64,000 nucleotides of DNA, from contig OZ246960.1 of assembly GCA_965232235.1 (NCBI GenBank), positions 871,058 to 935,057 of the forward strand, given 5' to 3'. Shown one piece after another: positions 1,590 to 59,319 of this stretch. The notes below the pieces were generated by a model. The model was given only the letters and a program-made list of their open reading frames with translations. It was not told the origin of the DNA and ran no database searches. Positions within the stretch are counted from its first letter, which is position 1, and every line of letters starts with the position of its first letter. The stretch is from Candidatus Poribacteria bacterium. GTDB lineage: Bacteria > Poribacteria > WGA-4E > JAJDTR01. A program made the position numbers and the translations under genes.

Positions 1590-1928
1590 ACCGTTCTCCG
1601 GACGGTAGAATAGCAGCGTCCGCTTGTTAATCACCGTTTCCCTAACGAGTTGGCGTTTCATAGACACATCCTAGAAATTGTTAAGACACAAGCACTGTTG
1701 TGAGAACTGCCAATGCCCCTCTTGCACAGAAAATGAACATTGGCGTTCATTTGTTAGATACGTAAGGGCGAAACGCTGGTGCGTCTCAGGAACACATCTG
1801 GGGACAATTCCAATGAAATCCGTGTGATAGCGCCAAGTGTGGGCAGCTTATGGACGTGGCACACAACTTGCTGACACTCTGCTAACACAGTCAATCCGAT
1901 TGCCATCGATTCTAAGGGAGCCAATCCA
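1590..1928 (+). repeat. duplicated gene-end + leader segment, copy A (also at 6130..6412 and 9880..10324)
   Basis: Long near-identical stretches shared with the other two copies, including ...ttctccggacggtag and ...gcactgttgNgagaactgccaaYgcccct... Confidence 0.7.
1857..1871 (+). promoter_or_regulatory. sigma-54 (RpoN) -24/-12 promoter match TGGCAC-acaac-TTGC, 58 bp upstream of the BNR1 ATG
   Basis: Exact GG-N10-GC spacing in TGGCACACAACTTGC; conserved in leader copies B and C. Confidence 0.55.
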
Positions 1929-3035
1929 ATGATATGGACTCGACGTTTAATGCGAACCGCTTTCATTTTCTTGGTAATGATGACTATATTGGCGAACGAA
2001 TCCGATGCGAATATCCGCGCCGAGTGGACTCAACTCACTGTCGCGCAGCCCATGGGGCGCGTGAACGCGCTTGAAACCGATGGACGCCGACTCTACGCCG
2101 GGACATGGAATGGTGTGTACATCTCCCTTGATGACGGTTACACCTGGGGTTCAAGCGAAGTCAAACACACGTGTACTGTAATTGCAACCCATCAAAATAC
2201 GGTGTATGCGGGAACATATGGCAACGGCGTAGTTCGCTCCGATGATCGTGGCGAGACATGGATGTCCAAAAACGACGGATTGCCCCTACCCGACGAACTC
2301 GACCAATACGGACGCGTTGAGCAAATCCTCGTCACCAGCTCCGGCACAGTCATCACTGTGACGAGCCTGGGTACGTATACATCGACCGACCGAGGTGAGA
2401 CATGGCACGGCGTAATAGACGACTGGATAGTGCACCAGGACGCGTGGGGAGCGCTCGACTGGCCAATAACCCGTAGTACGTTGTCGATGACTGAGTTCGA
2501 TGGTTATCTCTGGGGCGAAGCGGATGGCAGCATGTTCCGTTCCCCTGACAACGGCCACACGTGGGAATCTATTCCTCGTTTCGGACACCACCCGGCGCAC
2601 AACTGGGCGGTGTTCAATGATAAATTATATGTCGCCGGAGGAAAAGGCTTTGCACGATGGAACGAAGAAGGACTCCCTTTCCCTTGGGAGTATCGCATTA
2701 AAGGGTTTCCAAGCGATTCCGATGGGTATTTAGACTACGCGCCCAGTTTAACAAGCTTGGCTGTAAGCGGCGGCCGTCTATTTGCCGGACTTTACGATCA
2801 CGGCGTCTACATGTTTGATACACGCTCGGACACATGGATTCCCGCAGGTCTGCAGTGGCTTACAGTTAGTGCGCTCGTATCTCATCAATCCGAGCTGTAC
2901 GCAGCAACCTATGCGCTCGACGAAAGGCAGGCAGGCACCGTCCACACGCCCCAAGGGATCTACCGCGCTACAATTCTGGCCGTGCAGCCCTACGGCAAAG
3001 CCGCCACCACTTGGGGCGCCCTTAAAACAAAATGA
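1929..3035 (+). CDS. secreted BNR/Asp-box repeat beta-propeller protein, paralog 1 (368 aa)
   Basis: Signal peptide; Asp-box motifs SLDDGYTW, SDDRGETW, STDRGETW, SPDNGHTW; C-terminal tail PYGKAATTWGALKTK. Confidence 0.75.
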   Translation: MIWTRRLMRTAFIFLVMMTILANESDANIRAEWTQLTVAQPMGRVNALETDGRRLYAGTWNGVYISLDDGYTWGSSEVKHTCTVIATHQNTVYAGTYGNGVVRSDDRGETWMSKNDGLPLPDELDQYGRVEQILVTSSGTVITVTSLGTYTSTDRGETWHGVIDDWIVHQDAWGALDWPITRSTLSMTEFDGYLWGEADGSMFRSPDNGHTWESIPRFGHHPAHNWAVFNDKLYVAGGKGFARWNEEGLPFPWEYRIKGFPSDSDGYLDYAPSLTSLAVSGGRLFAGLYDHGVYMFDTRSDTWIPAGLQWLTVSALVSHQSELYAATYALDERQAGTVHTPQGIYRATILAVQPYGKAATTWGALKTK

Positions 3036-3817
3036 AATACCTAATCTTCATACTGAGTTTGTTAAGCCTTATTGTTGCCACTGTTCTGCTCGTGATCGCC
3101 ATCAGCTCTTGCACGCCGGACGTCCATGCCGAAATTCGGGCACTCTGGGTTCCACTCGTTGGCACGGAGTCCCTGAAGCACGTGAACGCACTTGAAACCG
3201 ACGAATTCCGTCTCTACGCCGGGACGTCTGCCGGACTCTACATCTCCCGAGATGACGGTGCCACCTGGAGTTTAACTGACCTTACACACGCTTGTCAGGC
3301 AATCGCAATCCGTCAAAATGCAGTGTATGCAGGAACACAAATGCGCGGGGTATTTCGCTCCGATAATCGCGGCAACACATGGAAGACCAAAAATAACGGA
3401 TTCCACGAAGTGCGTTGGGGCGGCGAAGATCGCGGATTTCCATTCATTCATCAGATCCTCTTCTCTAATACCGGCACAGTCATCACAGTGATGTACCACC
3501 AGGGCACGTATACATCGACCGACCGCGGCGAGACATGGGACAGCGTCATAGACGACTGGAGACTAGGCGACTGGCAAATAGGCGGTGATATCTGGTCGAT
3601 GACCGAGTTTGACGGATATCTCTGGAGCGCCATTTCGGTGCACACCACGCTCCGTTCCCCTGACAGCGGTCAGACGTGGGAACATATTGACCACTTCGAA
3701 CACACCCGGGTAATCGGCGTAGAGGTAGCCGTCCCGCTGTGTTTTGAACACATCCGGGGGTATTTCGTCCGGTACAGCGAAGCAGTGATGAACTATAGCC
3801 AGCCAGCAAACGAGTGA
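3032..3817 (+). CDS. BNR/Asp-box paralog 2, C-terminally truncated or diverged (261 aa, lacks the conserved tail)
   Basis: ATGA start/stop overlap with paralog 1; Asp-boxes SRDDGATW, SDNRGNTW, STDRGETW, SPDSGQTW; similarity to paralog 1 is lost after about aa 225, suggesting a frameshift. Confidence 0.55.
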   Translation: MKYLIFILSLLSLIVATVLLVIAISSCTPDVHAEIRALWVPLVGTESLKHVNALETDEFRLYAGTSAGLYISRDDGATWSLTDLTHACQAIAIRQNAVYAGTQMRGVFRSDNRGNTWKTKNNGFHEVRWGGEDRGFPFIHQILFSNTGTVITVMYHQGTYTSTDRGETWDSVIDDWRLGDWQIGGDIWSMTEFDGYLWSAISVHTTLRSPDSGQTWEHIDHFEHTRVIGVEVAVPLCFEHIRGYFVRYSEAVMNYSQPANE

Positions 3818-3851
3818 TACATATTTCACTTTCATGGTGCCACCCTCTTAT

Positions 3852-3890
3852 GTTTTTGTTCGTAGGTTGGGTTGAACACCGTGAAACCCA
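3852..3890 (+). repeat. REP-like element gtaggttgggttgaac..gtgaaacccaac
   Basis: GTAG followed by inverted repeat ttgggtt/aacccaa; the same family sits at 19680, 22770 and 27838. Confidence 0.6.
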
Positions 3891-3891
3891 A

Positions 3892-4836
3892 CTATCTAGC
3901 TTCCTGAACGCGGCGTTTTAAGCTGCCCCATGTAGTCGCCAGCTTGTTCTCGGGCTCCACTGCGAGCGAACCGCCGGGGAAGAGGTGATATCCGTTGCCG
4001 GACGAATCTCGATACATGGCGGCTCCGGGACCTTCATCAAAGTGCCACAACGCTATAGTCTGTACATCCAACCGGAGTCGACGTCTCGGACGAATTTCCG
4101 CCTCTCCGTAACGGAATCCCTTGGAAACCCGAACTTCGTCGATGTAGCCCTTCATGGATCCAAATCTGTATCCCCATCCCCAACCATTTCGTTTGGTGCC
4201 GCCAATTAGCAGCGGCGCATCGGTGCGGTTCATCGCGCTGCTAAAGGTGAAACCTCCCCAGTCGCCGTCATAATACCATATAACTTTCATACGATTTCCT
4301 TTCACAGAAATCTGATAGGCAATATGCACCCAACGCTTCAACGGGAAATCGTGGGGCGGAATCTCAGGTCCAAAAATCCCCGTACTCATGCCACTCTGTA
4401 CTCCATATTCGATATATGTAGTACCTTCTGGATCCCCCCGTCTAATACCAGAGCCTAAGTATCTTCCCGTAACAGAAACGAAATAGCTGCTGGGCTTGGC
4501 AAAGATATTCCACCGTCCCTCGTGAGAATTCGCAGCGAAATTCCAATCTTTCGGTTTATCGGTCAAATAAATCCACGCTTCAACCGTGATGCCCTTGCCT
4601 TCCACGTCGTCGAAGACACCGGGGTAATCGGCGTAGACATACCCGTCCGGGCGCAGTGTCAACACATCGCGGGGAACCTTCTCGGGTAAAGCGACTACTT
4701 TTGGCACGACAAATAACAATGCAATCAAGGTCAGGGCGCAAAATGAATATACTGTCCTGAATCTCATGATTCCCGCCGATTGAGTGTTTGCTAGTGTAAT
4801 CCCCTGCATTTCGATTCCTCCCATTTTATGTTTCAT
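3892..4836 (-). CDS. secreted LamG/concanavalin-A-like lectin-fold protein
   Basis: Hydrophobic signal from the internal Met (MRFRTVYSFCALTLIALLFV), so the likely start is 4767; WVHIAYQ..YIDEVRVS is laminin-G-like; C-terminus KLATTWGSLKRR shares the TWGxLK tail. Confidence 0.5.
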   Translation of the reverse strand: MKHKMGGIEMQGITLANTQSAGIMRFRTVYSFCALTLIALLFVVPKVVALPEKVPRDVLTLRPDGYVYADYPGVFDDVEGKGITVEAWIYLTDKPKDWNFAANSHEGRWNIFAKPSSYFVSVTGRYLGSGIRRGDPEGTTYIEYGVQSGMSTGIFGPEIPPHDFPLKRWVHIAYQISVKGNRMKVIWYYDGDWGGFTFSSAMNRTDAPLLIGGTKRNGWGWGYRFGSMKGYIDEVRVSKGFRYGEAEIRPRRRLRLDVQTIALWHFDEGPGAAMYRDSSGNGYHLFPGGSLAVEPENKLATTWGSLKRRVQEAR

Positions 4837-4903
4837 GTAGGTGTGCCGAGTGATCTTCCTTCATAAGTATTTTCCGCTAGAAGCCGATTTCCCTAACTAA
4901 TTC

Positions 4904-4918
4904 GCAAAAATCTTGCCA
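4904..4918 (-). promoter_or_regulatory. sigma-54 -24/-12 promoter match (minus strand TGGCAA-gattt-TTGC) upstream of the LamG gene
   Basis: Reverse complement of 4904..4918 is TGGCAAGATTTTTGC with GG-N10-GC spacing, about 70 bp upstream of ATG 4836. Confidence 0.45.
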
Positions 4919-4977
4919 ATCCCTAACCGTACAGGCGCACAAGCCAAAAAAAATCCGGGACGTGCAATGACTTGAAT

Positions 4978-5625
4978 TTATGAGCCAGCCGGGACAGATG
5001 CAAATCTGTGGCATGAGAGTAGGGCTAAATTGCGATACAACCCATAGCCATCAAGATAGAGATGATGTTCAAGAGGTACGGGACGCTCAAGTTCCTGAAC
5101 CACATCAATCTCGATCTCGCGGACGCTGCGCATCCAATCCCCGAACTGGTTGAGATTGGGTATGGTCGCGCTTAAACACGCAAATTTTATATGCTGTGGG
5201 GCGAAAATTATGCTCTCTTCCCATACCGTCCCTCGTTCAACATCGTTGATGTAATGAATCTCGTCGAATATTGCGTATTCTACATCCGCCAAGCGTTCTA
5301 TATCGTCGAAAATCGTGTTTCGGAAGATTTCCGTTGTCATCAACAGAATTTGGGCATAAGGATTGAGGACAACATCTCCCGTTAAAATACCGACCCGATC
5401 GCCATATCGCTCAAAGAAATCCCGATATTTTTGGTTGCTCAACGCTTTGATTGGCGCCGTGTAAATCACACGCCGATCGCCCTGAATGCATTTATCAACC
5501 GCATACTCCGCTACCACCGTTTTTCCCGCCCCGCTTGGAGCGGCGACAATCACAGAACGCTCATGATCTATTGCCCGGATAGCCTCTTCTTGGAACCGAT
5601 CTAGCTGTAAACCCCTGTAGAACAT
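4978..5625 (-). pseudogene. N-terminal fragment of a DEAD/DEAH-box (Ski2/Lhr-like) helicase
   Basis: Walker A APSGAGKT and DEIH box, but only about 200 aa; the reading frame ends at a 21-bp direct repeat (5022..5042) that recurs at 6052..6072. Confidence 0.55.
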
Positions 5626-5721
5626 TCAAATCTCCCAAACCCAAGTAACAGCCGCATGATTTTAACTGTTTCCACCCGTTTTGTCAAATGTGAATATCCG
5701 GGTGTAGGGGTCGCATCGCTT

Positions 5722-5800
5722 GGACCCATTGGGATCAACTTAAGGGATTTTGTCTAGTATCAGTGGTGTTCTCCGACGCAAAACCCTTAACTTAGTCCCA
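5722..5800. repeat. long imperfect palindrome (cccattgggatcaacttaaggg ... cccttaacttagtcccatagg)
   Basis: Inverted repeat seen directly; a half-copy recurs at 6030..6052. Confidence 0.45.
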
Positions 5801-5849
5801 TAGGATGGGGAGGAAATCTCTATCATCCCCCACACGGTAGGTGCGATCA

Positions 5850-5883
5850 AGCGAATGGATAATGAGTGCGATAGAGATCCCTT
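5850..5883 (-). repeat. copy of the R1 short repeat family (ctatcgcNctcattatccattcgcttgatc)
   Basis: Reverse complement matches the family consensus. Confidence 0.6.
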
Positions 5884-6129
5884 TCCAACCGCACCGGCAC
5901 CTACGGAAACCAGCGCCATGAGTCATCTCTTGTGGCGCACCCATCAGTGAACGAACTGGTATTCCCTCGCTCACGTCTACATGGAGATTAACAGTTCAAG
6001 ACATTGAAGCCGCGTGACTTGCACCCTAAAACGCTTAACTTGATCCCTATGGGGCTAAATTGCGATACAACCTATCCTGACGCTGAGCAACGTCAGACTA
6101 TCCGACGCATTCTTAATCGAATTGTGGTC

Positions 6130-6412
6130 CAAGATCGAACAGAAATGGTGCCCTACCAGCTTTGTTGAACGCGGGCACTGTTGGGAGAACTGCCAACGCC
6201 CCTCTTGTACAGAAATTGGACAACGATGTTCATATTTTAGGTACGAAAGCACGAAACGCCATTGCGTCTTAATGACACATCGGAGCACAATACCGATGAA
6301 ATTCGTGGGTTAGTGCCCGAATCGGGGCAACTTATGGGCGTGGCACACCACTTGCTCACGCTCTACTTGCGCAGTCAATCCGATAGCCATCAGTTCTAAG
6401 GGAGGCAATCCA
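6130..6412 (+). repeat. duplicated leader segment, copy B
   Basis: Shares the last ~280 bp of copy A, including the sigma-54 site and ribosome-binding-site region. Confidence 0.7.
6341..6355 (+). promoter_or_regulatory. sigma-54 promoter match TGGCAC-accac-TTGC, 58 bp upstream of ATG 6413
   Basis: Same position as in copy A. Confidence 0.55.
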
Positions 6413-7509
6413 ATGATATGGGCTCAAATTTTCACGCAAACCGCTTTCATTTTCTTAGTAATGATGACTATCCTAGCGAACGAATCGGATGCGAATATCC
6501 GCACACTTTGGCTTTCACTCACTGGCACGGAGGATATGGGAGAGATAAACACACTTGAATCCGATGGAAGCCGACTCTACGCCGGGACACGGGACGGACT
6601 CTACATCTCGGACGATAACGGTTACACCTGGCGTTTAACCGAGTTTAAACTGCCTGTTAAGGTAATGGCAACCAGCCCGCAATCAATATACGTAGGATCG
6701 AATGTTTATGACGGCCTCATTCAATCCGATGATCGTGGAAAGACATGGGAGCCCCTAAACAACGGGCTTGGATATATCGATGAAACCAACCGTTTAGACG
6801 ACGGTCCCGTTGGGTACGGAGTGTTTAAATACTTTGTGCACACCCCTTACGGCACCATAATCAGTGTAATGGCCTGCTGCACTGATGACTCGGCCGACGG
6901 CAGCGACACCTGGCGTGAGGCGCCATCCGACTGGCGAGTCGACGATACCGACTGGATATTAGGCTACGCTGTAAAGTTGTTGTACGGCATGGATCACTAT
7001 CTGGTGGCCGGCTGGGTTAGCGGTATACTACGCTCCCGTGAGGGACAACCCGGCGGCCGCCTCATCTCTTCCTTCGGTGGGAACGTCGACCAGATCGCTT
7101 GGCCGACCGCCTGGGCCGTGCTCAATAATAGAGTGTATGTAACCTGAGCACCATACTTGTCAAACGCCCCGTTTTTCGCGCTATACGACCCGGAGCGCAC
7201 TTGGCAGTATCTCAACGTAGGGCTTCCGGAGAGCGACGGTGTATGGCTCCGATACAATATAAACACCTTCGCTGCTAACCGCGGCCGCCTCTTCGCCGGA
7301 CTTAACCGCCCCGCGGCGTATACATGTTTGATGAGCGCTCCAAAACGTGGATTCCGGCAGGCCTAGACGGGTTGACCGTTAGTTCGCTCAAATCCCATCA
7401 AACCGATCTGTACGCAGCAACCAATGAAGGAATCTACCGCGCTTCAATCCCGACCGTGCAGCCCTACGGCAAAGCCGCCATCATCTGGGGCACCATCAAA
7501 CAAAAATGA
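6413..7509 (+). pseudogene. BNR/Asp-box paralog 3, disrupted by at least two frameshifts
   Basis: Homology to the intact paralogs continues across three frames (6413..7147, 7157..7366, 7324..7509); ends with the tail PYGKAAIIWGTIKQK. Confidence 0.6.
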
Positions 7510-8576
7510 AATACACAACCCTCATCGTCACTCTATTAGCCCTGCTCCTCGTCATCTCCCTCGCCCGCGCCGAGTGGGAACTCCTTCTTGCCACGCATAA
7601 CATGAGCGGCGTGACGGCACTTGAAACCGACGGCAGCCGCCTCTTCGCCGGGGGATCGTTGGAAGGACTGTATACCTCGGACGATAATGGTGACACCTGG
7701 TGTACAACCGCCCTGACGCACGGATACGTTCAGGCAATTGCTATCAGCGGCGATGCGGTATATGCATTCGTGAATGAGCACGGCATGTTTCGCTCCGACG
7801 ATTACGGGAAGACGTGGAACCCGATAAACGACGGGCTCCGCACAATTCATGACCATACCCTCGACATCCGGATCCCGTACATTAACCAAATACTCGTTAC
7901 CCGTTCCGATATGGTCATCGCTGCGGGCGGCTTTGATGGGACGTACATATCCCGCGACCGAGGAGAGACATGGCACTTCGCGGCCGATTGGTCGTTTCCC
8001 TGCCCCAAAGGGCCCGAGGTGCCCGACTTTACATTCAGCGATTCCATCGATTCGATGATCGAATACGACGGTTATTTGTGGGCAGCCGCGTGGTTCCACG
8101 TATACCGTTCCCCCGACGACGGCTCCACATGGGAATGCGTGCCAGTATTGCCAAGGCTCGGCGAAGCCTACGACTGGGCAGTGCTCAACAATCAATTATA
8201 CGTCGCCGGAGGACACGGATTTGTACGATGGAACGAAGGCGAACTCGCTTGGGACGATCTCAACAACGGGCTGCCGGATTCCCCTGATTTGAGAAGCCTT
8301 GCCGTTAACCGCGGCCGCATCTTTGCCGCAGTTAGGGCGTCATCTATGATCAGACCAGGGGCTTATAGGACTGTCGCACACGGCGTGTACGAGTTCGATG
8401 AGCAATCCGAAACCTGGTTTCCCGCAGGCCTAGAGGGAGTGGCGGTATACTTGGTCGCATCCGATCAATCCTACCTCTATGCCTCGACGTACAAGGGCAT
8501 TTACCGCGCTTCAATCCCCGTCGTGCAACCCTACGGCAAAGCCGCCGCCACGTGGGGCGCCATCAAACGACCATGA
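7506..8576 (+). CDS. secreted BNR/Asp-box beta-propeller protein, paralog 4 (356 aa)
   Basis: Signal peptide; SDDNGDTW, SDDYGKTW, SRDRGETW, SPDDGSTW; tail PYGKAAATWGAIKRP; ATGA overlap with the upstream gene. Confidence 0.75.
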   Translation: MKYTTLIVTLLALLLVISLARAEWELLLATHNMSGVTALETDGSRLFAGGSLEGLYTSDDNGDTWCTTALTHGYVQAIAISGDAVYAFVNEHGMFRSDDYGKTWNPINDGLRTIHDHTLDIRIPYINQILVTRSDMVIAAGGFDGTYISRDRGETWHFAADWSFPCPKGPEVPDFTFSDSIDSMIEYDGYLWAAAWFHVYRSPDDGSTWECVPVLPRLGEAYDWAVLNNQLYVAGGHGFVRWNEGELAWDDLNNGLPDSPDLRSLAVNRGRIFAAVRASSMIRPGAYRTVAHGVYEFDEQSETWFPAGLEGVAVYLVASDQSYLYASTYKGIYRASIPVVQPYGKAAATWGAIKRP

Positions 8577-9908: not shown

Positions 9909-10324
9909 AATCGCAGCGTCCGCTTGTTAATCACCGTTTCCCTCACGAGTTGGCGTTTCATAGACACATCCTTGAAATTGTTAAGACAGAGGCACTGTTG
10001 CGAGAACTGCCAATGCCCCTATTGCACAAAAAATGAACATTGGCGTTCACTTGTTAGATACGAATGCACGAACCGCTAAGACACAGCAGGAGGTGAGTTC
10101 GATGCAATTCGTGGGGTAGTGCTAATACAGGGTAACTTATGGACTAGGACAGTCCTGGGACGTGATAGATAGTGGCGCACAACTTGCATACATTCCAATA
10201 ACGCAATCAATTCGAGAACCATCAACTCTACAAGAGACGGCAAATTTTGTGCACTCAACTCGGATCGACTTTCACGAAGTGCTGCCGCTATGAGAACTAA
10301 CACTGCCGAAAAGGTGAAAACCCT
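9880..10324 (+). repeat. duplicated leader segment, copy C
   Basis: First ~200 bp nearly identical to copy A. Confidence 0.7.
10173..10187 (+). promoter_or_regulatory. sigma-54-like promoter match TGGCGC-acaac-TTGC
   Basis: GG-N10-GC spacing retained; 138 bp upstream of ATG 10325. Confidence 0.4.
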
Positions 10325-10972
10325 ATGAACGACTCCAACTTGTTCGGACGAATCGTTAAGGCGGCGGTGGTCGTCGCCCTATACGCATTCTTTTTCATCG
10401 GTGCTGTCGTCCTGATAATCGGCTGCGGCGAGGAACGTGAGGATATCCTGCAGCCGGCCTTGCCAACGATTAATCTGAGAGCACAAGACATCGATCCGAG
10501 CTTTCGTCAGTTTGCATATGCCATCACCGCCAGCGAGCCGCTCCCCTATTCTATAACACTGCGCGTAGACACCACTGCCGACGTATTCGCAAACGGGCAC
10601 TTCCAAATTGTGAGAAATAAGGAAATCCTCACTTTCAAGCGTGGTTCACAGACGGTCTACGGATTCTACAACAGATATTTCCTGCAAGCGTTCCTGTATC
10701 AAAACAGCTTTTTTTTCGATAAGGAGTTCGGGACGCTGGAATGCGTTCGCGGCGGCGGCGCCGGTTCCGTCCCAGACCCCCCGCGTGGGGCTCACCCCGT
10801 GATTCAGATAAAGGTAATGATCTCACATCCACTGCCCAACGACGACCATTGCGTCAGCCTTGCCGGCGGTGCCTACACTATTGAGAGTTCGAAACTCACT
10901 TTAAGGGCGCCTGACGATCTCATCGAGACGCTGTTTCCTGACCCGGACACCCGCCCATGGGAAGTCCGATAA
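10325..10972 (+). CDS. hypothetical membrane-anchored/lipoprotein (215 aa)
   Basis: N-terminal TM helix ending in IIGCG. Confidence 0.4.
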   Translation: MNDSNLFGRIVKAAVVVALYAFFFIGAVVLIIGCGEEREDILQPALPTINLRAQDIDPSFRQFAYAITASEPLPYSITLRVDTTADVFANGHFQIVRNKEILTFKRGSQTVYGFYNRYFLQAFLYQNSFFFDKEFGTLECVRGGGAGSVPDPPRGAHPVIQIKVMISHPLPNDDHCVSLAGGAYTIESSKLTLRAPDDLIETLFPDPDTRPWEVR

Positions 10973-14949: not shown

Positions 14950-15558
14950 ATGTCATCTGCTGCCGTGCAATCTCATCTGGCACCGGAAGAGTATCTCGCT
15001 CTAGAACGCAAAGCAACGATCAAGAGCGAATACCGAGAGGGCCGCACGCACCCGATGTCAGGATCAAACCGGGCGCATAATCTCGTCAGCGGAAATATCA
15101 GCTGTGGACTCCATCTCCAGTTGAAGCAGCGTTCCTGCGAGGTCTATGCTTGTGACATGCGCCTAAAGGTTAGCGCGGCGGGACTATATACCTACCCCGA
15201 TATCCTTGTTGTCTGTGATGAACCACGATTTGAGGACGCCAATGTTGATACACTCTTAAATCCCACCGCCCTTTTTGAAGTCCTCTCACCGCGCACCGAG
15301 GCGTATGACCGAGGGGCGAAATTCGGGTACTATCGACAACTCGACTCCATGCAAGAATACACCCTCGTCTCACAGGATTTTATGCGCGTCGAACACTACC
15401 TCCGACATAACGAGCAGTGGATCCTGACAGAATTCGGCAGCCTCAATGATGTTGTTCGTCTGACTTCAATAGACTGCGAACTCCCACTGCGTGAAATTTA
15501 TGCGAAAGTAGATTTCCCTCCGAACGAGTCACCCCGCCAATCCCAACAGACCGTTTGA
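14950..15558 (+). CDS. Uma2-family (DUF820) PD-(D/E)xK endonuclease-like protein
   Basis: Start at the internal Met; the central and C-terminal layout and length are typical of Uma2. Confidence 0.5.
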   Translation: MSSAAVQSHLAPEEYLALERKATIKSEYREGRTHPMSGSNRAHNLVSGNISCGLHLQLKQRSCEVYACDMRLKVSAAGLYTYPDILVVCDEPRFEDANVDTLLNPTALFEVLSPRTEAYDRGAKFGYYRQLDSMQEYTLVSQDFMRVEHYLRHNEQWILTEFGSLNDVVRLTSIDCELPLREIYAKVDFPPNESPRQSQQTV

Positions 15559-15650
15559 AAATCCATTCCTGGCAGCCTCATCCCCCTTCCTCCCTTCAAC
15601 GGCGAGACTCCCTTTACTAGCCACTGACCACAGAGCACTGGCAACTATTC

Positions 15651-16757
15651 TTACCTACCACTCCAGACGGCTCTTAACAAATCCCCCGTGTAAATCGCGC
15701 TGGGCAACACCTCGTACTCCGCCCAGCACCCGGGGCACTTGTTGACCCATTCCCGCTGCTTCCCTATCCTGCCATTCGCCCACAAATCGGCGAATTTCTC
15801 CTCCTTCAGATTCCCGACGCTTGTCGTGTTGAACTGGCACGTCGGCACACGCCCATCCGGCAGCAGCCGCAGGTGCGAATTAAGTGCGACGCATTTCGGA
15901 TTGGGCACGCCCTCACCTTGAAGCAACCGATTCCGGATGCCCTGCAGGTAGTAGCGTTTCGCGAGCCGGTCAAGCAGCGGATAATTCGTGAGGTCCTTCT
16001 CAATCTCGTCGAACAGCGTTTGAAGATGCTCCTCCGTGAATTCGCCAAACGTCGTAAACTGACCAATCTGCGACGGAGCAACCTCCAGCTCCTCCTCCAA
16101 GTTATAGGTCGCGCTTAGGTCGTAAGCCATCACGACATTGTTCCGAACACCCAACGGCTCTAGGAACTCCCGCAAGCGCTTATAGTGTTCAACCCCCTCC
16201 GCATCAACTATCGACTGATTCACCGACAGACTCATCCGCAGCTCCTTCTGACGCGGCGCCAGAGCATTGAGCGTCCTCACGATGAAATCCCACGCCTTGT
16301 CATGGCCCCGCACATGGTTATGCTTCTCATCCATACCGTCAACGGAAACGAGCATACTCAACGGAACATCCCGCCGCCGCTTCTCGCAGAACTGCACAAT
16401 CCGGTCTGTCAGGAAACCGTTCGTCGTGACATGAATCATTAGCGGTTTAAGTTTGTCTTGGACGAGATGAGCGATGTCCAATAGGTCACGCCGAACAAAC
16501 GGCTCACCACCCGTCAACCGCACGGCGTCCATCCGCGGCAGTTTATTGAAGATGTTTCCAATCTCGTCAATGCTCAAATCGTTCGGCGAAGGCTTGCGCC
16601 ACGAGTCGCACATGATGCACCTCGCATTGCACGAGAACGTCACGATATACGTCAAACACCGGGGTAGTGTCACGGCGCGGCGGCGGGCGCGCCCAACCGT
16701 GTGAAGAAACGAGAGCAGGCGATTCTTGATCTCGAAATGAGACGGGTGTCCGCTCAT
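15651..16757 (-). CDS. radical SAM protein
   Basis: CNARCIMC (Cx3Cx2C) near the N-terminus; GGEP motif. Confidence 0.75.
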   Translation of the reverse strand: MSGHPSHFEIKNRLLSFLHTVGRARRRAVTLPRCLTYIVTFSCNARCIMCDSWRKPSPNDLSIDEIGNIFNKLPRMDAVRLTGGEPFVRRDLLDIAHLVQDKLKPLMIHVTTNGFLTDRIVQFCEKRRRDVPLSMLVSVDGMDEKHNHVRGHDKAWDFIVRTLNALAPRQKELRMSLSVNQSIVDAEGVEHYKRLREFLEPLGVRNNVVMAYDLSATYNLEEELEVAPSQIGQFTTFGEFTEEHLQTLFDEIEKDLTNYPLLDRLAKRYYLQGIRNRLLQGEGVPNPKCVALNSHLRLLPDGRVPTCQFNTTSVGNLKEEKFADLWANGRIGKQREWVNKCPGCWAEYEVLPSAIYTGDLLRAVWSGR

Positions 16758-17875
16758 GTGGCGAGCTCCTTCTTACGTGTGGCGGGGGGCAATGGTGAGG
16801 CGATAGGTTTATATCCCGGCAAATACTGATTGATAATATTTAGAGCGGCGGTGTTCCCATACACCTGCCGACGATTGATGCGAGCGCGAAATGCCTCGCA
16901 CCGCTCCATAAAATAGCGCGTATGTACCGGCGAAATCTGCTCCATTCCCACGCTCATACCGGCTCCCGAACGTTGGACAAAATGCCCGTTGATGCGTTGC
17001 TCGTGGTTGCGGTGTTCCGGCATGGCGAGCACCGGCTTTTCAAGATAGAGAGCTTCCCCGATGAGTTGGTTTCCAGCCGTGCTTATCAATGCGCGGCTCG
17101 TCGCTAGGTCTTCCACGAACCGGTGCATGTCGATCGGCAAGAATCGCAATCGCCCGGAAGACGACTGCTCTCCCAGTCCGTAAATGCGCACCTCGCACCC
17201 GCAGGCTTCAAGCGCGCCAAAAACTTCGCGCGAACCGAATCGCCGCAGATACACCACTAGATGATCGCCGCGCTCCGGTGCGGCTTCCAGAACTTCGGAC
17301 CTCAGCAATACGCCAATCTGGGTGACATCATGCGCTCTAGGTTTAAGCGGCGGAAAGTAGAACGACGAGACAACCGTTTGCAATTGACCACGGCAATAGC
17401 CGCGCACGATCTGTGCCATGAAGAACGCATGCCATCTTAGCTCCATGGGCAGCGAACTCAGGTCCGACGTAACTAGCACGTGTTGGTGATCCAGACTGAT
17501 GTAAGGAACGCCTGCGTGCCGTATGGCTCTGGGCAGCGCGGGCTCGAAATCGGTTATCGCCAAGTCGGGTGACTCTCGCTCAATATCCGACCGCAGCCGC
17601 CGAGAAAGCGCGGCGTACTTCGCGGCATAGGACAACCCCTTTATTCCCGTTCTTACGGGATTCAGCCGATGGCTGCGAGTGTAATGAAACGACAGCCCCG
17701 GAATGTGTCTAACGGTAACATCACTCTCTTGATACACCGGTTGTAACAGGTCGTAGGCTTGCCCCGGCGCGTAAATTACAATCCGATGATTCTTCCGCAA
17801 CTCCTCGACAATGGCGCGCACACGTGTGGCATGACCGCGCCCCTCACCGGACAAGCTATAGAATATAGTTGCCAT
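16754..17875 (-). CDS. glycosyltransferase (GT1/GT28, MurG/MGT-like)
   Basis: N-terminal YSLSGEGRGHATR Gly-rich loop; 373 aa GT-B-like. Confidence 0.55.
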   Translation of the reverse strand: MATIFYSLSGEGRGHATRVRAIVEELRKNHRIVIYAPGQAYDLLQPVYQESDVTVRHIPGLSFHYTRSHRLNPVRTGIKGLSYAAKYAALSRRLRSDIERESPDLAITDFEPALPRAIRHAGVPYISLDHQHVLVTSDLSSLPMELRWHAFFMAQIVRGYCRGQLQTVVSSFYFPPLKPRAHDVTQIGVLLRSEVLEAAPERGDHLVVYLRRFGSREVFGALEACGCEVRIYGLGEQSSSGRLRFLPIDMHRFVEDLATSRALISTAGNQLIGEALYLEKPVLAMPEHRNHEQRINGHFVQRSGAGMSVGMEQISPVHTRYFMERCEAFRARINRRQVYGNTAALNIINQYLPGYKPIASPLPPATRKKELAT

Positions 17876-29410: not shown

Positions 29411-29623
29411 TCATCTGCGCCAGTATGTGCGAGGCTTCTTCCGAGTTTTGCTAGCCTCGCGCTTTTTCTTCTCCTCTAGTTTCGCGTGGTAGAGTTGATG
29501 ACACTCACGGCAGAGCGCGGTTAAATCTGTGAGCCGCTCTTTGCCTCGGCGTTGGTAATTCACGTGATGCACCTCGGTGGCGGGGGCACCGCAGACGCGA
29601 CACTTCCCGCCAGATTTTTTCAT
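29411..29623 (-). CDS. small HNH nuclease-motif protein (70 aa)
   Basis: CRVCG..EVHHVNY..N..CRECHQLYH; the ORF could extend upstream into repeat-derived sequence. Confidence 0.45.
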   Translation of the reverse strand: MKKSGGKCRVCGAPATEVHHVNYQRRGKERLTDLTALCRECHQLYHAKLEEKKKREASKTRKKPRTYWRR

Positions 29624-29821
29624 GATGGTATCGCGCTTTGATTTCCATTTTGACGATCCCAGATACGACCTGTAATTGCGTTGACGTGTTTGCTTGGACG
29701 GTTGATGTTGTCTTTTTCGCTGCGCCACTGTGAACCATCCTTTCGAGTAAATGTCAGCACTCCTGTAGGGTGCGCACCTGTCGAAGTTATGAAATATGAG
29801 TAGGATGGGCGATCCCCCTGG

Positions 29822-30245
29822 GACCTCTATCGCGCTCATTATCCATTCGCTTGATTCTCCCACAATCGGGGAACAATAAGCTCTATCGGGATTGGATACC
29901 GTACCCAATGTCTCACGTGGCACTCCGCTGGAGTGCAGGAACTGGGACTTTTCCTTTCTATTGACATGCCGCCCCTCCGGGGCGGGGAGCCGCGTTCTGG
30001 AGGGGATCTCTGTGGGAACGCTATCGCGCTCATTATCCATTCGCTTGATCCTCCCACAATCGGGGAACAATAAGCTCTATCGGGATTGGATACCGTACCC
30101 AATGTCTCATATGGCACTCCGCTGGAGTGCAGGAATTGGGACTTTTCCTTTCTATTGACATGCCGCCCCTCCGGGGCGGGGAGTCGCGTTCTGGAGGGGA
30201 TCTCTGTGGGAACGCTATCGCGCTCATTATCCATTCGCTTGATCC
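29822..30245 (+). repeat. 194-bp tandem direct repeat (2.15 copies), each unit holding R1 + hairpin + ttctattgacat + GC hairpin
   Basis: The consensus starts at 29827, 30021 and 30215. Confidence 0.8.
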
Positions 30246-36373: not shown

Positions 36374-36871
36374 CTAATCGATTTCGAGCTCTATTGCGCG
36401 ACAGGTAAATGCGAAAGTACCAAAAACGTCATCGGCACGGCTTTTGCTGTTGGGATAGCCCAAAGCCACAATGCCGTGAGGGTATGGTGATTTCTGTACG
36501 CCAAATGCGACGTGGGCGGTGACACGAAAAGCATTTCGCTTGTCATCATACCATTTTACAACACTTGCGATCTTATGTAGGTCAATTTCAACATCGTCCA
36601 GGCTGTGCACAAACCTGTCGTTTACCGGACCATCGTTTAAGAGTTTTCGTTGCTGAATGTACGCAAATTCTTTGGTGCAAGGCCCTTTCAGAATGACGAC
36701 TTTTTCACGTTCATCTGCTAAACAGTTTAACGGCCCGCAATTATTCGGAAAATGTGCCAAGAGTTGATGACCGCTCTCATAGGGGTGGCATGTGATGCGT
36801 CGAATAAACCTAAGATTAATCAAAGCTTCGACGGGTATACAGGCAGCGCCGTTTGGAATTTTCAGGAACAT
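36374..36871 (-). CDS. hypothetical protein (165 aa, island gene 3)
   Basis: ORF track; lower GC. Confidence 0.35.
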   Translation of the reverse strand: MFLKIPNGAACIPVEALINLRFIRRITCHPYESGHQLLAHFPNNCGPLNCLADEREKVVILKGPCTKEFAYIQQRKLLNDGPVNDRFVHSLDDVEIDLHKIASVVKWYDDKRNAFRVTAHVAFGVQKSPYPHGIVALGYPNSKSRADDVFGTFAFTCRAIELEID

Positions 36872-45210: not shown

Positions 45211-45612
45211 GTTTTAGTCTCCTATCCTTTTAGCTGCGATTGGGGCTTGAGTATCATCTCCTACGCTATTTTTTGACTATCACCGCCGGTCTCATTTCGC
45301 TGATGTGTCCCCGCCCACGATAGGCGCGTAGATGGTGGTTTTGTCCATAGTCATGACTGCCTTGAATGTCATTATAGCACGGGCGCAAAGGGATTGAAAC
45401 GGAAAAGGTGGTGCCCTCCGAGGGCGCATCCAATTGTAGGTGGTTGCATGCGGGATGGCGCAGGGCGGTTCAACAGTAGTAGACTTTAGAGTCGTGTCGT
45501 GATAGGCTGTCGTGTCGCGAGCGTCAAGGCGGGATTGGCTTCACAACTATTGAACCGAAGGGCTGAAATAGACGGAAGAGGGCAAAGCATTTATCCGGCA
45601 GGGGAGGGAGCA

Positions 45613-46728
45613 ATGACACTTCTGAGAGTTGTTTTGATAGTGGTTCTGGCGGCAGCCTCGAATCCGGTAGTTGCCGACCTAAAGATTCGTTTTTGGTCAG
45701 ACCGCGATGACGGCGAAAGTTCACTCTTCGTCATGAATCCTGACGGATCCGACCCGGTTAATGTAAAAGAGGAGATGGTTCTACCCACAGCGCCAGCCTG
45801 GTCGCCCGACAGAACGAAGATTGCCTTCACGTTTGGCCGCTATGAGAAATCCGATATTTATGTGATTGATATTGACGGTTCCAATCTTGTGAATCTTAGC
45901 AATAAAGGCGGCGGCGACTACAGCCCACGTTGGTCTCCGGATGGAACGAAGGTGCTCTGGTATGGATGGCCGCCGAGGAAGGGTGAAGGAGGCGCAAGAA
46001 TCTTCGTGAATGATGCGGACAGCTCAAATCTGCGTGACTTGGGCCCGGGTATCTGGCCCAAATGGTCACAAGATGGGACGATGATTGGCTTTACTCTCTA
46101 CGGGATCGTAGAAACTGCATTTATAGTAAACGCCAATGGTTCAGGCAGGCGCGCGGTGACCGAGCGGATTATAGACACTCAATTTCTTTCTTGGTCGCCC
46201 GATGAAACGAAGATTGGTCTTGCCAAACATATTCAGCATAACTCACACAAGGATCTTACGCAGTGGTGCGTCTATGTAATAGACATTGATGGTTCCAATT
46301 TAGTGCATCTTTCAAAAGATCTCCGAAACCTCGACGCCCATGGCGCTGCTTGGTCGCGGGATGGGAGGAAGATTGCTTTTTACACAAACGGCCTTGCCGT
46401 CGATGTTGGCGATATTTTCGTCGCGAATGCTGATGGCACGAACCGGATTAATCTCACTGAACACCATCCTCGCGGAAAAGACCGCAGCCCGCAATGGTCT
46501 AGAGATGGAAGGGAGATCCTGTTTGAAACCGACCGAGACGGCAACCGTGAGGTCTACATTATGAACGCGGACGGCACGAATCCGGTAAATCTCACGAATC
46601 ACCCCGCGGACGACGGGGCGGCGTCTTGGTTCACGTTCGACACCGACCTTCTTACAAGAGTCCCCTTGCCGTGGGAAACGCTGATTACGACGTGGGGACA
46701 GATAAAGGCAGTTGCCAGTGACCGGTGA
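45613..46728 (+). CDS. secreted PD40/TolB-like beta-propeller repeat protein, paralog 1
   Basis: Signal peptide from the internal Met; repeated WSPDGTKIAF/WSRDGRKIAF/WSQDGTMIGF units; tail LITTWGQIKAVASDR. Confidence 0.65.
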   Translation: MTLLRVVLIVVLAAASNPVVADLKIRFWSDRDDGESSLFVMNPDGSDPVNVKEEMVLPTAPAWSPDRTKIAFTFGRYEKSDIYVIDIDGSNLVNLSNKGGGDYSPRWSPDGTKVLWYGWPPRKGEGGARIFVNDADSSNLRDLGPGIWPKWSQDGTMIGFTLYGIVETAFIVNANGSGRRAVTERIIDTQFLSWSPDETKIGLAKHIQHNSHKDLTQWCVYVIDIDGSNLVHLSKDLRNLDAHGAAWSRDGRKIAFYTNGLAVDVGDIFVANADGTNRINLTEHHPRGKDRSPQWSRDGREILFETDRDGNREVYIMNADGTNPVNLTNHPADDGAASWFTFDTDLLTRVPLPWETLITTWGQIKAVASDR

Positions 46729-47005: not shown

Positions 47006-48118
47006 ATGAAATATCTGATGGTTGTATTGACATTAGTCTTGCTAGTTGCCTCAACGAGTTACCCAGTATTCGCCGATCTAAAGATTTTCTTTGAGTCCGG
47101 CAGAGATAACGAAACTTGGTCCTGGTTCTCGCTCTTTATGATGGATCCTGATGGCTCCAACCCTGTCAATCTTTCCAAGGCACTCGGCGTAAAATTAGGC
47201 GCCGTCTGGTCACCTGATGGGACAAAAGTTCTTTATTCGTCAGGCCCCGATTTTGAACGCGAGATACTTATGATGGATCTGGACAGTTCTAATGTTTTAA
47301 ATCTTACGAATGACCCCGGATCAGACAGTTTTCCGCGCTGGTCGCCTGATGGAACGCTGATTGCTTGGAATAGATGGCCGCCGCGCGGACTTGGCGGAGC
47401 AGTGGAGATCTTCACGATGAATGCCGACGGCTCCAATCCGCGCAACTTGGGGCGCGGTTTTCGTCCCAAGTGGTCTCCCGATGGGACAATGATAGGGTTT
47501 ATTCTCTCTGGCAGACCGGATAATGCTTTCGTAATGAATGCCGATGGCAGCGGTCGGCGGCGGGTGACCAATGACCTTCCGAACACTAAGTTTGTTTCGT
47601 GGTCGCGCGACGGAACAAAGATCGCCTTTTATCATCGACCTTTGATTGGATTTAATAAGAATAAGATCTACGTCGTAAACCTTGACGGAACCGGTTTGGT
47701 CGAACTCACCAAAGACCTAGCTGATATTGACCATTTCGGCGCCGCTTGGTCGCCGGACGGAACGAAGATAGCTTTTTATTCCTCGGAACTAGGCTTGAAT
47801 TGGTCCCACATCTACGTCGTGAATACCGATGGCACGAATCGGGTTAATCTTACCATACACCATCCACTTGGCATCAACAGGGTGCCCCAGTGGTCTCCGG
47901 ACGGAAGGGAAATTCTGTTTCAAACCAAACGCGATGGCAACTGGGAGATTTACCTCATGAACGCGGACGGTTCCGATCCGGTAAATCTCACGAATAACCC
48001 GTTCAACGATGAGCATCCCGCCTGGTTCAGATTCGATCTCCCGACAACATCGATCTCGCCGCAGGAAAAACTAATCACTTCTTGGGGACAGATAAAGGCA
48101 GTGGCCAGTGATCGGTGA
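47006..48118 (+). CDS. secreted PD40/TolB-like beta-propeller repeat protein, paralog 2
   Basis: Signal peptide; WSPDGTK repeats; tail LITSWGQIKAVASDR. Confidence 0.65.
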   Translation: MKYLMVVLTLVLLVASTSYPVFADLKIFFESGRDNETWSWFSLFMMDPDGSNPVNLSKALGVKLGAVWSPDGTKVLYSSGPDFEREILMMDLDSSNVLNLTNDPGSDSFPRWSPDGTLIAWNRWPPRGLGGAVEIFTMNADGSNPRNLGRGFRPKWSPDGTMIGFILSGRPDNAFVMNADGSGRRRVTNDLPNTKFVSWSRDGTKIAFYHRPLIGFNKNKIYVVNLDGTGLVELTKDLADIDHFGAAWSPDGTKIAFYSSELGLNWSHIYVVNTDGTNRVNLTIHHPLGINRVPQWSPDGREILFQTKRDGNWEIYLMNADGSDPVNLTNNPFNDEHPAWFRFDLPTTSISPQEKLITSWGQIKAVASDR

Positions 48119-56057: not shown

Positions 56058-57023
56058 ATGACGAAGATGATTAAAAGGGACCTACAATATTACGTGGAGA
56101 AGATGAAGCGCTTGAAGATTGACAGGGCGCACGGTCCGGCGCCGCATAAGCCGGCGCTGCTGCTGTCGGTCATCGCGCTGATTGAGGATGGGCTAGTTAC
56201 AGAGAATCGAATTGAGTTGTCCCCCGAAATGGCGGAGATCTTCATCCGATATTGGTCGAGGGTCACTAATCGAAAGCCTGATATTTCGTTGCCATTTTTC
56301 CACCTGCAGAGTGATGAGTTCTGGCATCTGCACCCAAACACGGGTTACGAAACGGCTCTGCGTGTTGCCAACCAGATTAAAGGGATTTCTCGGATTCGCG
56401 AGGTTGTTGCATACGCTGGTTTGGACGATGAGTTATTTCTGTTACTCACTGACGCGGTCGATAGAGAGACGATTCGTCGAACACTAATACGTACGTATTT
56501 CCAGGAATATATTAAACAGATTGGGGAGTTGATTGAGGAGGAGCAGCAGATCGGAGCGTACAGAGAATCGTTAATTGACGAAGTTGAATCGCCGTTTTCA
56601 ACGACGAAACCAAAAAGGCAAACTGGGGCTTACACCAAGGTACGCGATGCCGGGTTTCGGCAAGCGATCATGCGACTATACGATTACACTTGTGCGGTTT
56701 GCGAGTTGCGTATCGTCACTATGGATGGCGAGAGTGCAAGTGAAGCGGCTCATATCATCCCGTTTCGTGTTTCGCAGAATGACGATACACGGAACGGAGT
56801 CTCATTGTGCAAATTGCACCATTGGGCGTTCGACAGAGGACTGTTTTCGTTGAGCGAGAACCATCGGGTGGTTGTTTCCGGGTTGATGTCGGAGGATCGT
56901 CCAACGGAGTGGAAGTTGACGGAACTTGAAGACACACGTATTCAGTTACCGGATAGGGTTCAATTTCGCCCTGCACAGGAAGCAATGGCGTGGCACCGGG
57001 AAAATGTGCTCAAGCAGAATTGA
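56058..57023 (+). CDS. HNH_2-type endonuclease with an N-terminal DNA-recognition-like domain; candidate modification-dependent (type IV) restriction enzyme
   Basis: CAVCEL..EAAHIIPF..NGVSLCKLHHWAFDRGLFSL HNH motif at the C-terminus; N-terminal HKPALLLSVIALIEDG block. Confidence 0.5.
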   Translation: MTKMIKRDLQYYVEKMKRLKIDRAHGPAPHKPALLLSVIALIEDGLVTENRIELSPEMAEIFIRYWSRVTNRKPDISLPFFHLQSDEFWHLHPNTGYETALRVANQIKGISRIREVVAYAGLDDELFLLLTDAVDRETIRRTLIRTYFQEYIKQIGELIEEEQQIGAYRESLIDEVESPFSTTKPKRQTGAYTKVRDAGFRQAIMRLYDYTCAVCELRIVTMDGESASEAAHIIPFRVSQNDDTRNGVSLCKLHHWAFDRGLFSLSENHRVVVSGLMSEDRPTEWKLTELEDTRIQLPDRVQFRPAQEAMAWHRENVLKQN

Positions 57024-57239
57024 GTAATCGGTGTGATCGGAGAGATTTGTGTCGCGCGGGTTTGGGGGCAGAACAGAATGAGCGCCGGAACCTAGGATCC
57101 CTATCGCCCTCCCTATCCGGTCGGTTAATCTCACGCTGGAGCGGGGAATCGCGACCGGGAGGTCGCTCCCACAAAGGCTGGTGCGCGGTGCGCACCCTAC
57201 ATATAGATTTGTTCCCACCCCACAACTACTCCCGTGACG

Positions 57240-58031
57240 TCACTTGCGCTGATCCGGAGGGGTGGGTTTACGCTTTGGAGGTGTGGGTTGGTTCATTTTT
57301 CTTAATTCGGCCCATGCATTGCTTGAGATCCACTTATCGGGGTGCTTTTCCAGCCGTTGAAGCCCCTTCTTCCTCTGGTCAAGATCGGGGATGGACATGA
57401 CTTCGCAGAATGCTTCCAAGACCGGGAGTTTTTTCTGGTAGTATTCCCGGGACAATTGCCAGGTGGCTTGCTCGTTGCGAATGGAAGCTTCGAAGTAATG
57501 CTCTTCCGTCATGTCGAGTTTGGTTCGAATTTCGGATTCGCGGGCGTGCATGCTCCAATTCTCATCCAAGATCACGGCATTGTCGGGAACGAATTCGGGG
57601 AATTTTGAGATCTTCAGGAAGTAGACCAGGTCCTCCGTCTCTGAAAACATAGGACCTTCCGTGTGACCTGAGATATCGCACTGATACGCGAGAAGGGTCG
57701 CCGGGCTGCGTTCAGGTTGCGGCTTTAGTTTCTTGTTGATTTCTTTCAGGTCGCGTTCGGAAAAGAGGGCTTGTACGATCTTTTCTTTCGCGTAGAGTAC
57801 CCGGTTGATTCGGATTGTATGCAAGGAACCGTCGTCTGATGTATCGATGATGGGTGACTTCCAATTGACAATGACGAACTGGGTGCTGGTGACCCTTCCG
57901 AAGAACACGATATCGGATTTCTCGACGAGTTCGTGAATATGAATCACCGACGAGATGGCGTGAGCCAGAATGGTTGGAATGACGGATAGCGCTAGAACGG
58001 CGATGCCTGATAACCAAGAATGGCGTTTCAT
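57240..58031 (-). CDS. secreted hypothetical protein (263 aa)
   Basis: Signal peptide MKRHSWLSGIAVLALSVIPTILAHA. Confidence 0.35.
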   Translation of the reverse strand: MKRHSWLSGIAVLALSVIPTILAHAISSVIHIHELVEKSDIVFFGRVTSTQFVIVNWKSPIIDTSDDGSLHTIRINRVLYAKEKIVQALFSERDLKEINKKLKPQPERSPATLLAYQCDISGHTEGPMFSETEDLVYFLKISKFPEFVPDNAVILDENWSMHARESEIRTKLDMTEEHYFEASIRNEQATWQLSREYYQKKLPVLEAFCEVMSIPDLDQRKKGLQRLEKHPDKWISSNAWAELRKMNQPTPPKRKPTPPDQRK

Positions 58032-58129
58032 TTTTGCCTCCGACGGCGGTTGGTCGATGGTGTTGTCCGTGACGATGCTGGGAATGCAGGGGTTCGTTGG
58101 GGGACATTATCGCACATGAGCTGCCGATT

Positions 58130-58720
58130 TTGCAAACCGTATGGGATCAAGCGAATGAAAAATGAGTGCGATTGGGATTCTAAGGCGATGGAAATTTCTA
58201 ATGGCTATTCGCAGATTGTAGAGGGTGGAGTTCTGTTGCGGGGATAGGGCGGGCGTGGGAGATCTATGTCGTCGTACGGATGAGATCACAATCTAACAGA
58301 TTGTGGTACTGGGATCGGGCGCGGGAACCGCGCCCCTACGACGCATCGGGTTTGTTGAGGGATTTGCTATTGCGCACACATCTTTATCGGCGTAGAGAGA
58401 GATCACAATCTAACAGATTGTGGTACATGGCTTTTGTGCTTGATCACATGCGGCTAATCGGGGCAAGGGAATCTCTATCGCGGTCGCTATCCACTCCCTT
58501 GATTCCCTCCTACAACCGGGCGGAGGGAGATTTCTGTTGCGGGGATGGGGCGCGGAGACCGCGCCCCTACGAACCCGACTGGGCAGGGGATTTCTATCGC
58601 GCGAAGATCTCTATCGGGATGGACTATCGCGTTCCCTATTCGGTCACTTGATCCCTCACTATCCGTTCGGTTGATCTTATCCAGTCGGTTGATTCCCGCC
58701 TACAGATTTATTCAGAAGGG
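58130..58720. repeat. dense cluster of R1-family repeats, GTAG-REP hairpins and a duplicated palindrome atcacaatctaacagattgtggtac (58283, 58400)
   Basis: Seen directly. Confidence 0.65.
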
Positions 58721-58721
58721 C

Positions 58722-59285: not shown

Positions 59286-59319
59286 GATATGTCCTCCTGG
59301 TGCGGATGAGTTTGGTTTG

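Follow-up and report, generated by a model that had tools for sequence, protein, structure and literature searches.

Which promoter drives the expression of a gene for a secreted LamG-domain protein in Candidatus Poribacteria? The locus that raises this question lies in a stretch of 64,000 nucleotides (nt) of contig OZ246960.1 (assembly GCA_965232235.1, positions 871,058 to 935,057, forward strand), which we call the window and whose positions we use throughout. We think it likely that a short motif at 4903-4919 on the minus strand is a functional sigma-54 (RpoN) promoter of this gene, and that it was ancestrally paired with a promoter for an array of BNR genes. The quality, position, conservation and synteny of the motif were observed directly, and from them we infer the dependence on RpoN. 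The features needed first are these:

4903..4919, minus strand: sigma-54-type promoter core TTGGCAAGATTTTTGCG, with the -24 GG at 4917-4916 and the -12 GC at 4905-4904
3892..4809, minus strand: LamG (Laminin_G_3, Pfam PF13385) gene encoding 305 amino acids, start set by homolog alignment
4810..4892, minus strand: probable 5' untranslated leader, placed from the promoter geometry
4937..4984, minus strand: promoter-proximal blocks kept in orthologs, from ortholog alignments

Read on the minus strand from 4918 to 4904, the site is TGGCAAGATTTTTGC, and exactly 10 nt lie between its GG (4917-4916) and its GC (4905-4904). GG-N10-GC is the canonical -24/-12 spacing of sigma-54 promoters. The sigma-54 consensus that Barrios et al. 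reportedly gave in 1999 is YTGGCACGrNNNTTGCW; against TGGCAC-N5-TTGC, TGGCAAGATTTTTGC has one mismatch. As in canonical sigma-54 promoters, there is a T before the GG, a CA after it and TTGC at -15 to -12, and the site is intergenic, a short distance upstream of a gene and without a -35/-10 pair. It departs from the canonical consensus at -21, where it has A rather than C (the orthologs have G), and at -11, which is G. The surrounding DNA (4861-4977) has no long open reading frame (ORF), and the site and the Laminin_G_3 gene downstream of it share one strand. The original prediction had described a motif at 4904-4918 on the minus strand with correct sigma-54 spacing, and when we re-read the sequence, its GG-N10-GC spacing and its non-coding location, this held. 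The distance to the gene did not: it had been given as about 70 bp, but the -12 element is actually 95 nt from the start codon at 4809, because the earlier figure was measured from an ATG at 4836.

We moved the start for the following reasons. The ORF 3892-4836 (minus strand) matches Pfam PF13385 Laminin_G_3 (E=1.3e-8), and the conserved N-terminus in an alignment of 26 homologs, MQ(G/R)I..., corresponds to the ATG at 4809 and not to the one at 4836. A GGAGGA ribosome-binding site sits at 4821-4816, 6 nt before the ATG at 4809. The protein has an N-terminal hydrophobic segment like that of a signal peptide and ends in the C-terminal tail KLATTWGSLKRRVQEAR. This tail, ...TTWGxxK, is common to LamG, five BNR/Sortilin-like ORFs (stops at 3035, 8576, 12223, 13309 and 14427) and two PD40 ORFs (stops at 46728 and 48118), as had been claimed from the sequence before, and we call genes that have it tail-bearing. 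There are 419 LamG homologs, and among the 120 listed all of those with a named source are from Candidatus Poribacteria.

From the promoter geometry, transcription would start near 4892, 12 nt downstream of the C of the -12 element. Two blocks upstream of the core are conserved, TTGGCTTGTGC at 4947-4937 (about -55 to -45) and CTCATAAATTCAAGTCATTGC (about -92 to -72), the latter containing an IHF-like ATTCAAGTCATTG at 4977-4965; for both we only infer a regulatory role. We found no sigma-70-like promoter on the LamG strand in the intergenic 4837-4977. The region 3600-6500 had no Rfam match at E<=1, and the leader folds no better than shuffled sequences (z=0.31), so there is no structured leader and we ruled out a regulatory RNA or riboswitch there.

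To see how the motif stands against background, we applied an approximate sigma-54 position weight matrix (PWM 1, maximum 21.5 bits), with frequencies set after the Barrios 1999 consensus, at each position of the window. TTGGCAAGATTTTTGCG scored 16.3 of 21.5 bits and ranked second in the window over both strands, where about 0.1 sites of at least 16.3 bits are expected by chance per 64 kb (200 first-order Markov shuffles, both strands). With PWM 2, built from 61 unique sites in distantly related Poribacteria loci, the site tied for first rank, with 0.41 expected. The pattern TGGCAC-N5-TTGC with at most one mismatch occurs 12 times in the window against 3.8 expected. A matrix score compared with the background had been proposed as a check on the original prediction, and by both matrices the site came out above the background. 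The top match of PWM 1 is TCGGCACGGCTTTTGCT at 36432-36448 on the plus strand (17.1 bits), inside the minus-strand ORF 36374-36871, and the next plus-strand gene begins only at 38799. We rejected this match as a promoter because it is intragenic, on the opposite strand and followed by no plus-strand gene for 2.3 kb. It is probably a chance match, and possibly an antisense promoter.

Our comparison covers 88 loci overall (L001-L088), 79 of them fetched from reference genomes, all Poribacteria metagenome-assembled genomes. The intact orthologs of the LamG gene are those in the window, L001-L005, L007, L008 and L080-L084, which makes 13, all from Poribacteria and some of them near-duplicates, with protein identities to LamG of 58-95% overall (60-90% for L001-L005, L007 and L008, 58-70% for L080-L084). 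All 13, window counted, have the motif 85-95 nt before the start codon; in the other 12 it reads TTGGCAGGxxxxTTGC[G/T/A], while the window has A at -21 in place of their G. None of the ten positions that the consensus specifies (-26 to -22, -20 and -15 to -12) varies in this set, while six of the seven degenerate positions do (-21, -19, -18, -17, -16 and -11). The chance that all six variable positions would fall in the degenerate set is about 6e-4 (hypergeometric, 7/12376). Directly 3' of the -12 element the alignment breaks into indels. The motif is intact in 13 of 13 intact genes and in neither of two pseudogenes (Fisher p=0.0095): in L006 the -12 GC has become GT, L009 has no motif match, and the LamG genes of both have in-frame stop codons.

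The motif is also not alone in the phylum. A scan of 736 kb of Poribacteria DNA gave 86 sites scoring 14 bits or more where 13.3 would be expected, a 6.5-fold enrichment; 71 of these are intergenic, and 54 have a gene start on the same strand within 300 nt downstream. Their consensus is TTGGCA[T/C]G[A/G]AA[A/T]TTGCT with an A-rich spacer, which, judged by its letters, is a textbook sigma-54 promoter. We take these figures as strong, if indirect, evidence for the use of sigma-54 in Poribacteria. The genes that follow the sites mostly encode proteins with signal peptides or lipoproteins: LamG, BNR, PD40 and small lipoproteins.

The second part of our answer, the ancestral pairing with a BNR array, depends on features further upstream and elsewhere in the window:

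6341..6355, plus strand: sigma-54 site TGGCACACCACTTGC, the divergent partner, in front of the BNR genes 6413-7147 and 7506-8576
5043..6051, minus strand: lineage-specific insertion, about 1 kb long, interrupting the ancestral divergent control region, from locus comparison
6217..6232, plus strand: palindrome TGGACAACGATGTTCA of the TGAAC-N6-GTTCA type, with the BNR -24 element about 117 nt further downstream
1857..1871, plus strand: paralogous BNR-type sigma-54 site TGGCACACAACTTGC, heading the tail-bearing BNR gene 1929-3035
10173..10187, plus strand: third, degenerate copy TGGCGCACAACTTGC (11.7 bits), before ORF 10325-10972 and three tail-bearing BNR genes
3696..3835, minus strand: LamG-2', a second, truncated LamG paralog downstream of LamG in the same orientation, ending at about 3696

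A counterpart of the partner site is kept on the opposite strand in L001-L004, L007, L008 and L080-L084. The divergent layout, with one site facing a BNR array and the other facing a LamG array, is found in L004/L088, L005, L007, L008 and L081-L084. In these loci the two sites are about 400-570 nt apart. The BNR-side site, GTGGCACA...CTTGC[T/A] at 15-17 bits, heads 2-6 BNR genes, nearly all of them tail-bearing, and the LamG-side site heads 1-3 LamG genes. In the window both members of the pair are present, at 4918 on the minus strand and at 6341 on the plus strand, but with 1.4 kb between them. Of the two BNR genes on its plus-strand side, 6413-7147 is truncated or frameshifted and 7506-8576 is tail-bearing. 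The 10173 site has G at -22, where 80 of 80 strong Poribacteria sites have A.

TGAAC-N6-GTTCA palindromes occur only three times in the window (1734-1749, 6217-6232 and 10034-10049), always with a BNR-type site some 115-140 nt downstream, and one is present at the equivalent place in L004, L005, L081-L084 and L088. About 115-140 nt upstream is where an enhancer-binding-protein site is expected, and the palindrome may be such a site.

The greater distance in the window comes with the insertion. A 21-bp direct repeat, GGTTGTATCGCAATTTAGCCC on the minus strand, bounds it on either side (5022-5042 and 6052-6072). L001-L003 and L085-L087 have this insertion too, while L004, L005, L007, L008 and L081-L084 lack it. 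The insertion carries a 215-amino-acid N-terminal fragment of a DEAD/Hel308-like helicase (ORF 4978-5625), the last 22 codons of which extend into native DNA. A 948-amino-acid neighbour gene in L001 was considered as the full-length source of this fragment and rejected, as it is a 5'-nucleotidase/FlgD_ig protein.

Put together, the LamG promoter would work as follows. The sigma-54 holoenzyme would, as at every promoter of this class, bind the core and form a closed complex, and opening would need an ATP-hydrolysing enhancer-binding protein bound upstream and reaching the promoter by DNA looping. Transcription from about 4892 would then cover the LamG gene at 4809..3892, and originally, we believe, it covered a tandem LamG array. 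In the ancestral state the promoter would have been half of a divergent pair that had a control region of about 400 nt in common with the sigma-54 promoter of the BNR array, and TGAAC-N6-GTTCA in this common region may have been the activator site. In the window genome, the BNR half and the palindrome would lie about 1.3 kb away as a result of the 1-kb insertion.

The alternative that survives best, which we still consider unlikely, starts from this same insertion. It holds that the ancestral sigma-54 promoter has been weakened or bypassed here, and that LamG is transcribed mainly by read-through from a sigma-70-like promoter that came with the inserted DNA. That DNA, missing from the eight loci just named, has a near-consensus TTGACA-17-TAAAAT (11 of 12 matches) at 5687..5659 on the minus strand, in LamG orientation, and we found no terminator-like site between it and LamG; for these reasons read-through is a real alternative in the window lineage. 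The surroundings are decaying (LamG-2 is truncated and there are BNR fragments), and the A at -21 is a change from the G of the orthologs. However, LamG still has an intact ORF, none of the consensus positions of the core motif has changed, and L001-L003 and L085-L087 have the same insertion yet retain both motif and gene. In addition, 125 nt of native upstream DNA are still in place, and enhancer-binding proteins are generally known to be able to act over about 1 kb. The sigma-54 promoter is our preferred explanation; in the window genome, read-through from the inserted promoter may add to its output or bypass it.

Several points weigh against the sigma-54 promoter. Just 3 of the 80 strong Poribacteria sites share its A at -21, and -11 is G. 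A search of 4880-5060 gave no inverted repeat or recognisable activator site in the 150 nt upstream of the LamG promoter. The PWM 1 frequencies only approximate the published consensus, so absolute bit values are approximate, and a matrix is fallible by itself, as the 17.1-bit match at 36432 that looks like chance illustrates. The entire intergenic region of about 400 nt is 65-80% conserved among orthologs, and conservation by itself therefore does not single out the motif; the informative evidence is the substitution pattern. Neither rpoN nor an enhancer-binding protein turned up in the window or the 88 loci, where we ran Pfam on 38 window proteins and searched all sequence in six frames with regular expressions for GAFTGA, the enhancer-binding-protein Walker A motif and the RpoN box; the 20-kb neighbourhoods of two orthologs lack them too, and the search was confined to these sequences. 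In the literature we found nothing relevant linking Poribacteria with sigma-54, rpoN or sigma factors.

Some of these points could be taken to mean that the motif is a chance resemblance in conserved intergenic DNA, whose bases serve another factor (as a sigma-70 -35-like TTGGCA or a repressor site) with no role for RpoN. This we regard as very improbable. The whole region is indeed conserved, TTGGCA matches TTGACA at 5 of 6 positions, about 0.1-0.4 matches of equal quality are expected per window by chance, and the presence of RpoN in Poribacteria is presumed. But there is no acceptable -10 hexamer 16-18 nt downstream of TTGGCA, where the stretch is variable and has indels in orthologs, and with no conserved -10 partner we ruled out TTGGCA as a sigma-70 -35 element. 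The substitutions track the information profile of sigma-54 exactly, a second sigma-54 match with a different sequence is kept on the other strand, and the 6.5-fold enrichment across Poribacteria is in intergenic, orientation-biased sites.

We next turn to whether the promoter belongs to a larger module. The original prediction had proposed that unrelated genes with the same tail are co-regulated by RpoN. Across all fetched sequence we collected 128 tail-bearing ORFs from LamG, BNR, PD40 and other families, and their tails have the consensus LAV[EQ][PA]xGKL[AT]TTWGx[LIV]K followed by 1-10 residues. The tail is about 17-25 amino acids long, is without a hydrophobic anchor, and had no NCBIfam match even at E<=10. 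We then grouped genes into transcription units (same strand, gaps below 200 nt), which are crude operon calls, and since all loci were picked around LamG homologs, the statistics on these units should be read with that in mind. A site of at least 14 bits was found in 39 of 92 units with a tail gene (42%) vs 19 of 236 without (8%; odds ratio 8.4, p=5e-12). Leaving out the seed LamG unit gave 12/43 vs 14/217 (p=2e-4), and with a single count per cluster of first genes at 50% identity the figures were 8/30 vs 6/164 (p=2e-4). Gene by gene, with a site within 300 nt, there was no association (15 of 120 tail genes vs 43 of 436 others, p=0.4). Because tail genes sit in arrays, the association appears only at the operon level.

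The proposal of a module thus fared differently in its parts. For LamG and BNR it is supported by the divergent layout and the enrichment at the level of units. Not every tail family of the window carries a site, though: the PD40 tail genes at 45499-46728 and 47006-48118 have none (best scores 2.5 and 9.4 bits), and the third BNR array has the degenerate 11.7-bit copy at 10173, which together with the gene-by-gene result speaks against the broader claim. Also, genes with a common sigma factor need not be co-regulated, as every sigma-54 promoter depends on an activator of its own.

In L022-L079 we observed a recurring cassette (e.g. L025 2345-8800, L031, L040 and L054). It is headed by a very strong sigma-54 site, TTGGCATGAAAATTGCT, of 18-21 bits, followed by a lipoprotein of about 130 amino acids (MNRWRCLLFILACLSQ.GC...IETIQFYTVADKGD), often by PD40, and then by LamG with the TWG tail, sometimes in two or three tandem copies. 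PD40 and LamG are therefore linked under sigma-54 promoters elsewhere, as the cassette recurs in more distant Poribacteria. With this in view we propose, tentatively and at somewhat less than even confidence, that sigma-54 may control a large, paralog-rich secretome, made up of LamG, BNR and PD40 proteins with the phylum-specific ...GKL[AT]TTWGx[LIV]K tail and of small lipoproteins, through dozens of near-identical TTGGCATGAAAATTGCT-type promoters in cassettes or in divergent BNR/LamG pairs.

Small lipoproteins are also present at the left end of the window, where 13-1334 encodes three histidine-rich ones (HxH repeats after an LLAC/SSC lipobox). They are orthologs of the three-gene operon at 366-1947 of L080, which is headed by a 17-bit sigma-54 site divergent from the LamG promoter. 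The counterpart promoter for the window genes would fall beyond the left edge.

A few other observations on the window are worth recording. At 3032-3835 a truncated plus-strand BNR gene, which loses sense past about 3690, adjoins the truncated LamG-2' (minus strand, 3835 to about 3696), and as read from the sequence this is a rearrangement junction. LamG-2 is intact in L004, L007 and L087, and it is broken differently in L085/L086. Directly after the BNR array, 14950-17875 encodes a Uma2-family endonuclease, a radical SAM/SPASM protein (15651-16757, minus strand) and a family-1 glycosyltransferase (16754-17875, minus strand). SPASM enzymes often modify peptides. Toward the right end of the window there are a P22-like portal protein (59783-61501, minus strand) and an HNH endonuclease (56058-57023, plus strand), which suggests a prophage or phage remnant at 56058-61501; another HNH endonuclease is at 29411-30040.

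It is useful to set the locus beside known systems. From canonical sigma-54 promoters the site differs at -21 and -11, as described, and the local Poribacteria consensus differs in its A-rich spacer. Divergent pairs of sigma-54 promoters with one activator region are known from E. coli, in hyc/hyp (FhlA) and zraP/zraSR (ZraR). The locus resembles them in having two sigma-54 promoters that face away from each other over a few hundred bp, with a conserved palindrome in between, about 115-140 nt from one of them. It differs in that its products, which are LamG and BNR proteins, secreted and multi-copy, are neither enzymes nor a regulator, that the pair in the window is split by a 1-kb insertion, and that the palindrome is only a candidate activator site. 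Francke et al. (BMC Genomics, 2011) are said to have described sigma-54 as a controller of the 'bacterial exterior'. The Poribacteria targets agree with this picture in being mostly signal-peptide or lipoprotein genes, although they are paralog-rich families with a phylum-specific TTWGxxK tail and not flagella, pili or polysaccharide genes.

The tail itself invites a comparison with the C-terminal domains (CTDs) that serve as sorting tags in the type IX secretion system (T9SS). For one of these, TIGR04183, Kamke et al. (2014, PMC3909097) reported possible matches in WD40-type proteins of Poribacteria. Like those tags, the TWG tail is a short conserved C-terminal element common to unrelated secreted domain families. 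Unlike TIGR04183, it is the short, anchorless element without an NCBIfam match that we described above.

Taken by itself, the LamG site is of an ordinary sigma-54 promoter type, in a phylum where such promoters are undescribed, and the gain from this one site is modest, a well-supported annotation of a standard promoter type. What appears to be undescribed is the presence of many sigma-54 promoters before tail-marked secreted families in an uncultured symbiont phylum. A sigma-54 promoter stays silent as long as no signal-sensing activator acts on it, which suggests that the LamG and BNR proteins, putatively surface or secreted, are switched on by a specific cue and are not constitutive. Poribacteria are dominant uncultured sponge symbionts. 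Because they cannot be cultured, and because we found no paper on a sigma-54 regulon in them, regulon prediction at the sequence level is among the few ways forward. Such prediction could group 'hypothetical' tail-bearing proteins into functional modules and help pick candidates for host interaction. If the wider reading of the secretome is true, the expression of host-facing surface proteins would depend on enhancer-binding-protein signalling, and an uncharacterised sorting or processing tag would be tied to one regulatory circuit.

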